IMG/VR virus record: IMGVR_UViG_3300020474_000010
Span: 1-63,316 of that record
Origin: a virus
Lineage: Duplodnaviria; Caudoviricetes
DNA length: 63,316 nt
Direction: 5' to 3' (one strand)
Positions 32,933 through 63,316 of this stretch are shown in pieces (within the stretch, counting starts at the first letter, position 1; each line of letters begins with the position of its first letter). The position numbers and the translations under genes were made by a program. The notes below the pieces were generated by a model. It had not been told where the DNA came from, did no database searches, and worked only from the letters and a program-made list of their open reading frames with translations.

Positions 32933-33114
32933 GAGAATAAAGGTCTCATGTAGTTTTTGAACTCTTCACATCTGTGAGATGCTAGGACTCTCATTTCCTT
33001 TTCTGTGATTACTATGTCGTAACCCTCTGCTCTCATTTCATCGTAGCATGCCTGAGATACTCCCTTGTCTGTTAGGTCGTATTTGTGAAGTTCAATGTGT
33101 TTGAAAAAACTCAT
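32929..33114 (-). CDS. Hypothetical early protein
   Basis: 61 aa; own promoter and A/C-rich leader. Confidence 0.75.
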   Translation of the reverse strand: MSFFKHIELHKYDLTDKGVSQACYDEMRAEGYDIVITEKEMRVLASHRCEEFKNYMRPLFS

Positions 33115-33139
33115 GTTGTTTAGTTTTGTTTATACTATT

Positions 33140-33198
33140 ATTATACACACGCAGGGTGACAGATGCCACCCAGTGTGTACCACTTTCTAAACTGTCAC
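33140..33198 (-). promoter_or_regulatory. Early promoter with palindrome #5
   Basis: GTACCACTT-TCTA-AACTGTCAC at 33177-33198; 31 bp to TATAAT (33140-33145). Confidence 0.75.
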
Positions 33199-33202
33199 AC
33201 CC

Positions 33203-33631
33203 CTACTCGTTGGGGATAGTGACTGGTTCTATAATACTATCTGTGATGTTATAATCATCATCATATTTGTGATCTAAACTAAACCCGTTCCATTCGCCAT
33301 GATCAAATATGTATAGAAACTCTTCACATGCCTTTGCGTTCTTAGCAAATGACCTGAAATCCTTGTCAAGTCGTGGTGCTTCACTGTCACCCCCGTAGTA
33401 ACTAGGTTGTGGATCTCTTTTCACATATTCTTGCTTCTCGAAATCAAATTCATTATCTGAGTAGCATGATGACATGTTGCCACCGTCTAGTAACTCAGCT
33501 ATCTTTTCATATGTGTTGTAGTGTTCTTTAAGAACTACACCCAACCACTCGGGATAACCGTCCCAATGATGATAAGCTGATAATACTGAGCCGTCTTGTA
33601 GTTTAAGACCAATGCGTGAACGTGTTCCCAT
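33203..33631 (-). CDS. Conserved phage hypothetical protein (MGTRSRIG...HWDGYP family)
   Basis: 142 aa with MGTRSRIG, YHHWDGYPEWLG..L and EEFLYIF..GEW motifs. Confidence 0.85.
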   Translation of the reverse strand: MGTRSRIGLKLQDGSVLSAYHHWDGYPEWLGVVLKEHYNTYEKIAELLDGGNMSSCYSDNEFDFEKQEYVKRDPQPSYYGGDSEAPRLDKDFRSFAKNAKACEEFLYIFDHGEWNGFSLDHKYDDDYNITDSIIEPVTIPNE

Positions 33632-33660
33632 GTTTGTTTAGTTTTGAGAGAATAGGGTGC

Positions 33661-33820
33661 GGAAAACAAAATGGATGGCGGTAGATTGGTGGCGATTTGC
33701 GTTATCTACCTTTAATAATAATGTGCTTGGTTATCTTCTGATTAACTGGACTAGTCTATTAATCAGTAGGGACTTTCACCTCTTCGGTCTTACACCTAAT
33801 TAACCATCATTTGTTTTCCC
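33661..33820 (-). ncRNA. Candidate ~160-nt structured RNA (leader or standalone)
   Basis: Ends pair (GGAAAACAAAUGAUGG with CCAUCCAUUUUGUUUUCC); internal hairpins CUGAUUAA/UUAAUCAG and GGUAGAU/AUCUACC; two GG-UGNAA-GN-CC T-loop-like hairpins; begins at the predicted TSS; no ORF. Confidence 0.65.
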
Positions 33821-33826
33821 ATTCTT

Positions 33827-33885
33827 AATATAACAGAATGGACCAGGGAATGCAACCCTGTGTGTGCCACTTAATAACGTGGCAC
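33827..33885 (-). promoter_or_regulatory. Early promoter with palindrome #6
   Basis: GTGCCACTT-AATA-ACGTGGCAC at 33864-33885; TTGCAT-17-TATATT (33827-33855). Confidence 0.75.
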
Positions 33886-34161
33886 AGGGTTTGGGTTTCC
33901 ATTGTGATCCCGTGGTAATCTCAACGTATGTGTCCCCTCGGTGAAGTTATCAACCGTGAACTTAATTTCCTTGTATAAACCACGGATTGCATCCTTACCG
34001 AAATAATCATGTTCAATGGTATCATGACCAGTGCATGAAGATCCCCATGATGTAACATCTGAATCGATCCTCGCAAAGAGTCCACGAACCATGTAATTCA
34101 GTAAACCGAGTTCACGTTTAGAAACTCTGATGTTGATGAATTTAGGATTATTCTCGTCCAA
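33871..34161 (-). CDS. Hypothetical early protein
   Basis: 96 aa; TTG start with GGAGG SD at 34171-34175. Confidence 0.65.
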   Translation of the reverse strand: MDENNPKFINIRVSKRELGLLNYMVRGLFARIDSDVTSWGSSCTGHDTIEHDYFGKDAIRGLYKEIKFTVDNFTEGTHTLRLPRDHNGNPNPVPRY

Positions 34162-34204
34162 GTGTAATTCCCTCCAATTGGTTTAAGATTGTTTGATACT
34201 GTTC

Positions 34205-34263
34205 ATTATACTGTCTTTGCAACCTAGCATCAACTAGGTCTATGACACTTTGTAATTCGGCAT
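34205..34263 (-). promoter_or_regulatory. Early promoter with degenerate palindrome #7
   Basis: ATGACACTT-TGTA-ATTCGGCAT at 34242-34263; TTGATG-17-TATAAT (34205-34233). Confidence 0.6.
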
Positions 34264-34284
34264 CAGTTAAAAAGATTGCGTGTC

Positions 34285-34545
34285 TCATTTTTTAAAATCG
34301 CATTTCATGTACTCTTTGACCTCTTCAACCACATCATCGAAGTGGTCATCCCAGTAGTCGCGGGCATCATTAAGGAAATCTTCATCGAACTGCGTTTCCA
34401 CATAGTGTGTCATATCACTATAAACGTATTCCATGAGATCTTCGGTGGTCATGTTATCGACATACCTTTCAACAAAGAATGCCTTTAACTCATCGATCAC
34501 CTCGGGGGTGAGTTCTTCCCCCGACTTCATTCTGTATTTTATCAT
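34285..34545 (-). CDS. Highly acidic hypothetical protein
   Basis: 86 aa, roughly a quarter to a third Asp/Glu; TAATG coupling. Confidence 0.75.
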   Translation of the reverse strand: MIKYRMKSGEELTPEVIDELKAFFVERYVDNMTTEDLMEYVYSDMTHYVETQFDEDFLNDARDYWDDHFDDVVEEVKEYMKCDFKK

Positions 34546-35012
34546 TAGAGGTAACCTGCGAATTCCATGGCAGGTTCATCATAGAACCATGATATGCTCA
34601 ACTCGGGAAACTTCTCTCGTAGTGCTGATACAATTCCCTCGGGTGGCGACCATGCTGTATCAAATGCGAACTGGACATAATCCTCGTGATCGTCTGACCA
34701 CTCAATATCCTTTTCTGAAATGTCCCATTTAGTTCCCCAATTCTGCACTCGCCAGTTATACCAGCGATCATCTTGCCTACCATCTGAGAATTCAAGTGCT
34801 GTATGTACATACTCACCATTAGGGTTCTTGTATGTTTTCTCAATTGGTAACTCACCACGATCAGGGCATTTGATCTTAGAGAAGTCAGGTTGTGGATATA
34901 TCACATTGAAAGGATTATCCTTAGAGAAGATCTCTTTTAACTCAGCGAGTTGCTTTTCTTCTTCTTCGTTACCAGCAGATGCTGTAACTCTGTTTTCACA
35001 CCAGTTAGGCAT
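34545..35012 (-). CDS. DUF1281 / YubB-like ferredoxin-fold protein
   Basis: MPNWCENR, WYNWRVQNWGTKWD, FDTAWSPP, YDEP..FAG motifs. Confidence 0.75.
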   Translation of the reverse strand: MPNWCENRVTASAGNEEEEKQLAELKEIFSKDNPFNVIYPQPDFSKIKCPDRGELPIEKTYKNPNGEYVHTALEFSDGRQDDRWYNWRVQNWGTKWDISEKDIEWSDDHEDYVQFAFDTAWSPPEGIVSALREKFPELSISWFYDEPAMEFAGYL

Positions 35013-63219: not shown

Positions 63220-63233
63220 ACCATAATATAAAA

Positions 63234-63316
63234 GGGGGAGGTTGGATTCCTGTATACCAACAAAGAACGGGCATTACTACAGTAGTAAAAACGTCCTTGC
63301 CTGAGACCCGACTGGT
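63234..63316 (-). ncRNA. 3' part of a structured RNA, possibly the manA RNA motif (truncated by the window end)
   Basis: Stems CAAGGACG/CGUUCUUUG, UUACUAC/GUAGUAA and GUUGG/CCAAC, followed by a terminator. The resemblance to manA is from recall, not a search. Confidence 0.5.

Follow-up and report, generated by a model that had tools for sequence, protein, structure and literature searches.

T4-like cyanophages rank with the most abundant marine viruses, and only a handful of their non-coding RNAs are known. The structured RNAs with which a further element may be compared include the purine riboswitch, a three-way-junction aptamer in which P1 closes two hairpins and conserved loops dock, and T-loop domains, which occur in the tRNA T-arm, in RNase P and in the distal stem I of T-boxes, interlocked pairs of them docking the tRNA elbow. 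In the accessible text of PMC9602691 and PMC12197685 the cyanophage non-coding RNAs named are CfrI, PhotoRC-II, wcaG, manA, glnA and abiF only. According to the same portions of these sources, manA (RF01745), wcaG, PhotoRC-II and the glutamine riboswitch are conserved structured intergenic motifs of T4-like cyanophages and marine metagenomes, as is the element described here; most of them are orphan motifs. The promoter-early stem-loops (PeSLs) of T4-type phages (PMC4122927, whose accessible text mentions cyanophages 0 times) share their layout with a stem-loop plus sigma-70-like promoter at 33891-33827 of our sequence, and the site of the latter likewise lies amid small variable genes with module shuffling, going by that part of the source. 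Lastly, PMC10690425 (main text) surveyed IMG/VR and predicts 8,495 candidate structured RNAs as novel.

The window, by which we mean the whole stretch of DNA analysed, is a 63,316-base IMG/VR virus record of 33% estimated completeness and is a fragment of a T4-like cyanomyovirus. The 6 kb around the element match cyanophage records only, 67 in number (Synechococcus 37, Prochlorococcus 16, Cyanophage 13, Marine 1). Genes in this part are encoded on the minus strand, and the element takes up most of a 239-nt gap that runs from ORF 33871..34161 to ORF 33203..33631, the HWDGYP-family ORF, which falls into PHROG 1987, a family of unknown function. Comparison of the neighbouring proteins with Pfam, PHROGs, PADLOC and the PDB returned only families of unknown function and therefore no partner protein is proposed. 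A tRNA/tmRNA scan of the whole window found no genes. Moreover, no transposase or endonuclease was found among the neighbouring genes searched.

We put at about 0.9 the probability that 33661-33820 (minus strand) encodes a genuine structured RNA, conserved and belonging to a new family. Its parts and those of its surroundings, in the direction of transcription, are as follows.

33854..33891, minus strand: upstream stem-loop of 13 bp with a 4-nt bulge (fold -20.4 kcal/mol, z -3.77, 0/200 shuffles as good)
33827..33855, minus strand: predicted sigma-70-type early promoter, from sequence; TTGCAT (33855-33850), 17-nt spacer, TATATT (33832-33827)
33820, minus strand: probable transcription start G, 7 nt past the -10 box; the end of one RNA-library contig (X1) coincides with it, as a hint
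33809..33820, minus strand: A-rich 5′ strand of the P1 extension ('clamp'), lineage-specific (MFE fold)
33803..33808, minus strand: 5′ strand of the P1 core, GAUGG and the innermost U (RNAalifold; pair counts)
33799..33802, minus strand: 5′ strand of P2, UAAU, partner 33719-33716 (two compensatory changes; also in the window's fold)
33796..33798, minus strand: UAG, with which the UAGGU in the loop (or internal loop) of P2 begins (invariant in 23/23 short forms)
33792..33795, minus strand: 5′ strand of P2a, GUGU, partner 33726-33723 (GCAC), closing the module (covaries in long forms; in the window's fold)
33727..33791, minus strand: inserted type-A module (RNAalifold, 13 copies)
33716..33726, minus strand: 3′ strands of P2a (33726-33723) and P2 (33719-33716) with AUU between them (fold, covariation)
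33711..33715, minus strand: junction strand J2/3, UUAAA (invariant in alignment A1, partly by construction of the search pattern; kept in hits retrieved without UUAAA)
33680..33710, minus strand: P3 hairpin with a 7-bp stem, a 17-nt loop (AAC GC AAAUC GC CACCA) and a 2-bp inner helix, P3b (covariation)
33674..33679, minus strand: 3′ strand of the P1 core, G and CCAUC (RNAalifold; pair counts)
33661..33673, minus strand: U-rich 3′ strand of the P1 extension ('clamp') (MFE fold; G-C to A-U change in L022)
33629..33660, minus strand: spacer and ATG (33631-33629) of the HWDGYP-family ORF, unstructured and G-poor (contig X1 bridges leader and ORF start)

A 171-nt RNA of the element folds at an MFE of -41.2 kcal/mol (z -3.67), a value that none of 200 shuffles equalled. 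The plus strand reaches a z of -3.51, and with the two so nearly equal, energy alone cannot choose the strand. Three stems that had been pointed out in an initial annotation, made from the letters of the sequence, are present in the MFE fold, namely the outer stem 33820-33804 / 33678-33661 and the stems 33766-33738 and 33710-33680. The outer stem is thus present in the window's own fold, but its conservation extends to three relatives only (L046, L022 and L102; loci are given by number). It holds the P1 extension, which in the window is a 17-bp A/U-rich helix that begins at the predicted transcription start and which, in its long form, is limited to these near relatives, L046 being identical, with a similar form in L101. 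The 7-bp stem 33710-33680 is P3 and covaries. A GGUUA/UAACC helix that had also been suggested is not conserved and is missing in the short forms of the family.

The first relatives came from a BLAST match of 36-46 nt to unannotated spacers of the cultured phages P-HM1 and P-RSM6, and more copies were collected by pattern scans of IMG/VR and of metagenomes. A covariance model, R1, was built from 23 short forms. The metagenome pattern scan gave 53 loci, 45 of them confirmed by the covariance model. Over the 79 sources searched, R1 gave 60 matches, at most one per locus, corresponding to 46 distinct sequences, with none in 11 decoy loci and none in 8 loci that are without the core. The false pattern hits, all rejected by R1, were L010, L014 and L015 together with the metagenome loci L021, L028, L031, L033, L041, L045, L050 and L063. 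Three cultured phages carry the element, namely P-HM1, P-RSM6 and MED4-213. Searching whole records with R1 gave exactly one match in each of these three, which are complete, and in each of two incomplete IMG/VR records. The window likewise has one exact pattern match and one strong R1 match, the element itself, where the 3′ half scores 49.6 bits (E 1.8e-9) and the 5′ half is offset by a 76-nt insert. All parts of the family motif (UAGGU, UUAAA and CGCCACC) lie in the window at 33808-33674, which makes its element a member. A weak R1 match at 33111-33187 on the plus strand (E 0.022) was read as chance. Representative bacterial and archaeal genomes gave 23 pattern hits, of which R1 confirmed 0/23; there is thus no evidence of the motif outside phages.

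The family was new to Rfam, as the initial annotation had thought possible. At the gathering threshold Rfam 15 matched the whole window at 63231-63316 alone, with manA; this manA RNA (RF01745) is truncated at the window's end. A search of 33400-34100 at E<=10 gave four weak matches, none of them within 33661-33820, and the motif was unmatched in 20 motif loci at E<=1, as was the type-A module in 7 module loci. The models of cobalamin and FMN riboswitches, T-box, RNase P and self-cleaving ribozymes did not match the element. We had considered that GGUGAAAGUCC and CGCCACC resemble what we take to be blocks of the cobalamin riboswitch; this likeness was dropped as it had no model support.

The core shared by the family is a three-way junction of ~62 nt, made up of P1, P2, a UUAAA strand and P3. 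P1 is formed by context-specific flanks and, outside the window's near relatives, is perfect over 3-8 bp. Two G-C pairs in it are constant, its third pair is Watson-Crick in 46/46 (G-C 23, A-U 20, U-A 3), its fourth in 37/46, and the innermost is U.G in 43/46 of the distinct sequences. P2 is a 4-bp UAAU/AUUA helix with all four pairs Watson-Crick in 46/46; it is otherwise invariant, save for two independent compensatory switches from U-A to C-G at different pairs (in the L029 group and in L102), and these two events constitute its support. Each of six positions in P3 is paired in 43-46 of the 46 sequences, by pairs of several types, and L112 and L114, where the search pattern left the first bases of P3 free, have compensatory changes even in its two outermost pairs. 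The P3 loop is near-invariant (AAYGCAA..CGCCACC). Compensatory changes are thus found in P1, P2 and P3.

Two further comparisons bear on the helices. Among the 23 short forms, pairing extends to 87.2% of cells, compared with 80.4% after shuffling, and the covariation score is 0.237 against 0.111 when shuffled, a value reached in 0/500, with partners slid by 1-3 columns giving <=0.089; this control overstates significance, because the sequences are related. RNAalifold, run unguided, recovers P1, P3 and P3b. Since members were collected by sequence patterns, invariance at pattern positions is partly by construction, which complementary search patterns ease in part only; UAGGU, though outside the metagenome search pattern, is invariant in 23/23 short forms. 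The folding z of the short forms is modest (-1.1 to -3.2). Alignment A4 misaligns the 5′ half of the long forms and was left out of the pair counts. G.U pairs occur on the gene strand at the innermost P1 pair and also in P2a and P2c (U.G). A coding reading was rejected because the linkers of 6-10 nt and the inserts of 24, 26, 48 and 74-80 nt break any reading frame. The notion of the core as a translation stop in all three frames fails for some members.

Inserts may be present or absent in P2 and in the inner portion of P3; in L102, P3b is lengthened by a 36-nt hairpin insert. The P2 content sorts the 46 distinct sequences into four forms, given here with their numbers.

Short form, P2 spacer of 6-10 nt: 32/46
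Small-hairpin form, P2 content of 24-26 nt: 2/46
Type B, P2 content of 48 nt (MED4-213 and L022): 2/46
Type A, P2 content of 74-80 nt: 10/46, the window's form

The window's type-A module is ~70 nt long and contains a T-loop-like hairpin (33783-33768, loop UGAAAGU) and helix P2c (33766-33758 with 33746-33738). Helix P2a, which closes it, covaries in the long forms as AUUGC/GCAAU, ACUGU/GCAGU, UCUGU/GCAGA and GUGU/GCAC. P2c has 9 bp in the alignment fold, rather than the 8 counted initially for the stem 33766-33738, with an innermost U.G and four pairs changed on both sides (RNAalifold, 13 copies); its loop in the window carries the palindrome GACUAGUC at 33756-33749.

This module bears on the proposal that twin T-loops are present, which would interlock and dock the tRNA elbow. 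One of the two hairpins, GG-UGAAA-GU-CC (33780-33770), is kept in 13/13 aligned module copies with a 7-nt UGnnAGU loop that follows the T-loop pattern, and the window carries a compensatory change from G-C to A-U in it. The other, GG-UGUAA-GA-CC (33796-33786), is there in the letters but not conserved: the invariant UAGGU of the window occupies 33798-33794, its G33795 and U33794 open P2a, and 33795-33792 pair with 33726-33723 in that covarying helix. Moreover, 28/46 distinct members (spacers of 6-8 nt) have no structured insert, a count made without the U of UAGGU, which is invariant, and without the A-Y-U conserved ahead of the 3′ strand of P2, and MED4-213 and L022 have the unrelated 48-nt insert instead. 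A tRNA-elbow dock of this kind calls for two conserved T-loops, and the idea fails here, where conservation is limited to one, in an optional module; neither the T-box nor the RNase P models matched and the window has no tRNA genes, all of which makes it extremely unlikely.

The type-A module also travels. It occurs without the core in other cyanophage non-coding regions, of which L099 and L104 have the appearance of ~190-nt RNAs, each equipped with a promoter and a terminator. In L101 and L105 the promoter reads TTGCAA, 17 nt, TATATT, 6 nt, G and the A/U clamp is similar to that of the window, but the cargo is different. In L102 the core, with its P3-loop hairpin insert, is followed by an L104-type RNA, and in L103 a 5′ part of the core is joined to the remainder of an L104-type RNA, an arrangement that looks recombinant.

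The element as a whole is portable too. P-HM2, a close relative of P-HM1, lacks it exactly at the P1 borders, and L101 has the same promoter and clamp with a different RNA, so the cassette-like behaviour that had been suspected is borne out. Several of the neighbouring gene families found elsewhere in the family cluster in the window at 33.2-35.3 kb, which indicates that the element moves within one variable early-gene cluster. Such behaviour could also mean that the element works at the DNA level, whether as a miniature mobile element, as a patch for recombination or as a hairpin site in single-stranded DNA, and that its structure is a by-product. That reading can draw on the discrete insertion relative to P-HM2, on TTAA at both sides of L042 and L026, on the swapping of modules between RNAs with L103 as a likely recombinant, and on the similar folding of both strands. 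However, the outer P1 pairs vary by site and yet stay complementary, unlike fixed terminal repeats or target duplications, the G.U pairs fall systematically on the transcribed strand, and there is one copy per genome with no transposase or endonuclease nearby. We regard a DNA-level element as highly improbable. P1 as a duplicated TTAA target was tried and rejected, the flanks being inverted and not direct repeats that vary by site.

The genes beside the element are varied. It precedes or follows at least a dozen different genes, in three kinds of context: 19-60 nt upstream of the start codon, for many small genes of different kinds; 0-14 nt past the stop codon, for other genes; and 10-25 nt upstream of terminator hairpins (L009, L048 and L114 included). 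A canonical -10 box (TATAAT/TATATT) stands 6-9 nt before P1 in about 10/46 contexts, and a T run follows P1 in 8/46. In P-HM1, MED4-213, L004 and others, a terminator-like stem-loop and promoters lie between the element and the next gene.

These contexts weigh most on a riboswitch, in which the junction would be an aptamer for a small molecule or ion and would control the downstream gene in cis, here the HWDGYP gene, for which the initial annotation had suggested a riboswitch-like leader as one possibility. The architecture is that of a conserved aptamer, with near-invariant junction and loop nucleotides, covarying helices and variable peripheral stems; in about two thirds of the context classes a start codon follows the element after 19-60 nt, and the T run after P1 in 8 of the 46 contexts could be fitted to such a role. 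However, consistent 5′ UTR placement before related genes is not what was found: the genes downstream come from a dozen or more families unrelated to one another, a diversity that speaks against a riboswitch specific to one gene, the intervening terminator-like stem-loops and promoters separate the next gene from the element, and the L009, L048 and L114 copies lie just before a terminator. Moreover, inspection by eye revealed no conserved alternative pairing or expression platform, and no Rfam riboswitch model matched. A riboswitch is therefore quite unlikely, and so is one dedicated to the HWDGYP gene in particular. Independence of neighbours, single copy, insertion and deletion as a unit and modules common to stand-alone RNAs point instead to an autonomous module, and our best reading is that the element is an autonomous RNA module that serves in the window as a 5′ leader.

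We then turn to how the locus may be transcribed. The proposed promoter, TTGCAT-17-TATATT with a start near 33820, is present in both hexamers and spacing, and its arrangement of -10 box, 6 nt and G recurs in L101, L102 and L022. A consensus promoter scan did not list it, because its -35 box fits at only 3/6 positions. The palindrome noticed at the promoter is the bulged hairpin 33891-33854, whose loop holds the stop codon of ORF 33871..34161 and whose 3′ arm enters the -35 box. The element thus sits directly behind a stem-loop that overlaps a predicted sigma-70-like early promoter in a variable region, which is the PeSL-type layout and agrees with the early-type promoter suggested beforehand.

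Part of the 1-kb stretch occurs in 17 public RNA-type runs from six studies, and four of these runs were compared, parts left uncovered and runs with small word shares being excluded as evidence. A contig of 221 nt from run X1 spans 33600-33820 without a difference and stops at the predicted +1; one from run X2, of the same study, covers 33641-33808, also with 0 differences. In a second study, runs X4 and X5 contain a relative in which 33681-33793 is swapped for 50 other letters, most likely the type-B form. DNA was possibly present in these libraries, contigs cannot prove starts and one contig alone stops at 33820, so that transcription of the locus from G33820 and on into the ORF is taken as a hint. 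The expectation of a discrete ~160-nt species fared less well, as both exact contigs pass the 3′ stem strand and one enters the ORF. The outer stem and its U-rich strand do not make an intrinsic terminator: the U-rich strand pairs with the A-rich strand in the window's fold, the RNA-library contigs pass through, and a terminator scan was silent. No terminator lies 3′ of the element in the window.

Two rivals are affected by these contigs. Small ribozyme classes are typically of such a size, with conserved unpaired nucleotides, optional peripheral stems, a patchy distribution and intergenic sites after stops or promoters. The element fits them in all these respects and its structure is well supported, so that it might be a small self-cleaving ribozyme cutting early polycistronic transcripts; yet no Rfam ribozyme model matched and X1 and X2 run uninterrupted across the whole core, and we think this very unlikely.

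The closest rival to our explanation is a trans-acting small RNA or RNA-protein scaffold, cut or terminated from longer transcripts and acting elsewhere, with a protein of the host or of the phage as an example of what it might bind. It would account for a single copy per genome that is independent of its neighbours and inserted or deleted as a discrete unit bounded by P1, for a type-A module common to stand-alone ORF-less RNAs with their own promoter and terminator (L104, L099, L101), and for an element often found at the start or end of a transcript. Against it, the window has no terminator after the element and an RNA-library contig runs into the ORF. We consider it unlikely here, if less so than the other rivals.

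The reading as an autonomous module that serves as a leader leads to the following mechanism. The RNA appears to be made from the early-type stem-loop-plus-promoter with its +1 at G33820, as the 5′ part of the HWDGYP-family mRNA, and the element would be a portable module, complete in itself, rather than a sensor that serves a single gene. P2 and P3 are probably packed next to each other; GGU in the P2 loop is invariant and complementary to ACC in the P3 loop. Such packing would make a compact knot, which some trans-acting factor recognises or which is nuclease-resistant, and at the 5′ end of a transcript, before a cistron or just before a terminator, it could define or protect RNA ends. Against this, a generic end-protecting module should recur within a genome, yet every record has a single copy, and near-invariant loops suggest a specific partner. 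That end protection or processing is the actual job of the element is tentative, and the explanation as a whole, mechanism included, stands a little short of even odds when set against the listed rivals.

A bolder proposal is that the 62-nt core represents a new class of functional RNA, be it an aptamer that senses a ligand or factor or a small ribozyme that cleaves itself, carried as a single-copy portable cassette by abundant ocean cyanophages, with the type-A module (T-loop hairpin and palindromic GACUAGUC loop) as a swappable docking or dimerisation domain common to several phage non-coding RNAs. We regard this as speculative and rather improbable. With three cultured phages of Prochlorococcus carrying the element and P-HM2 without it at the same site, its function is directly testable by comparison and phage engineering.

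In the literature we found no description of the motif, the main text of PMC10690425 included; the supplementary lists of that paper may contain it. As its survey, going by the same main text, used the collection that holds the window and many of the homologous contigs, the motif may already be among its candidates, unnamed.

In comparison with known systems, the element resembles a purine-type aptamer in overall shape, in that a P1 formed from the flanks closes two hairpins whose loops could dock. It differs from the purine riboswitch in having no Rfam match, no coherent gene association, no expression platform visible by eye and a single 5-nt junction strand. Its type-A module shares with T-loop domains one UGnnAGU loop closed by G-C pairs, but conservation is limited to a single loop of this kind, members may lack the module altogether, and it matches no family model. 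From manA, wcaG, PhotoRC-II and the glutamine riboswitch it is distinguished by the lack of any sequence or structure match, and further by occurring once per genome, by its portability between gene contexts and by its swappable inserted domains. To the few non-coding RNAs known from these phages it therefore adds a well-supported family with unusual traits, namely a single copy, movement as a unit and exchangeable RNA modules. Lastly, PeSLs are promoter and terminator DNA motifs present in many copies per genome, whereas the element is a single-copy RNA that lies behind one PeSL-type promoter and folds into a covarying junction.

The type-A module, the insert of about 70 nt in helix P2 of the element (window 33727-33791), also occurs within an unannotated RNA-like unit of about 190 nt in the IMG/VR loci L099, L104, L102 (positions 165-365) and L103. 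There it is accompanied by further helices and followed by a terminator hairpin with a U run, and in those loci that include the upstream flank the unit is preceded by a promoter-like -10 box. The unit contains no ORF and no family in Rfam matches it; it looks like a second undescribed non-coding RNA of cyanophages. Moreover, L101 (positions 340-680), and likewise L100, L105 and L106, contain a non-coding stretch that is at least 330 nt long. Its promoter and A/U clamp are the same as in the window, where the clamp extends P1; the cargo differs, yet includes the type-A module, and a strong terminator closes the stretch.

The loop of helix P2c within the module carries a self-complementary sequence:

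33749-33756, minus strand: perfect palindrome GACUAGUC, in the loop of helix P2c

Other copies carry GACAAGUC at this loop, with two central mismatches. The palindrome could be a site of loop-loop dimerisation.

At filled sites (L042 and L026) TTAA is found on each side of the element, whilst the empty site of P-HM2 (L108) has a single TTAA, which includes the stop codon. This pattern may have arisen by chance, or it may be left over from the unit's insertion.

Two neighbouring early genes match domains of unknown function:

34285-34545, minus strand: early gene, DUF7326 match (E 4.9e-16)
34545-35012, minus strand: early gene, DUF1281_C match (E 1.7e-8), the ferredoxin-like domain of Api92-like proteins

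In contigs of a related phage from the RNA-type libraries X4 and X5, window positions 34144-34284 (141 nt) are missing and 14 other letters stand instead; therefore, the small ORF 34148..34288 (46 aa) is absent from that relative.

R1, the covariance model of the element core, also gave a weak match on the opposite strand of the window (33111-33187, plus strand; 19.8 bits, E 0.022), overlapping another stem-loop-plus-promoter region, and this match is probably chance. Lastly, a copy of the known manA RNA (RF01745), partial because the window ends there and thus covering model positions 107-192 only, lies at 63231-63316 on the minus strand; its score of 73.8 bits exceeds the family's gathering score, which is 55.2.
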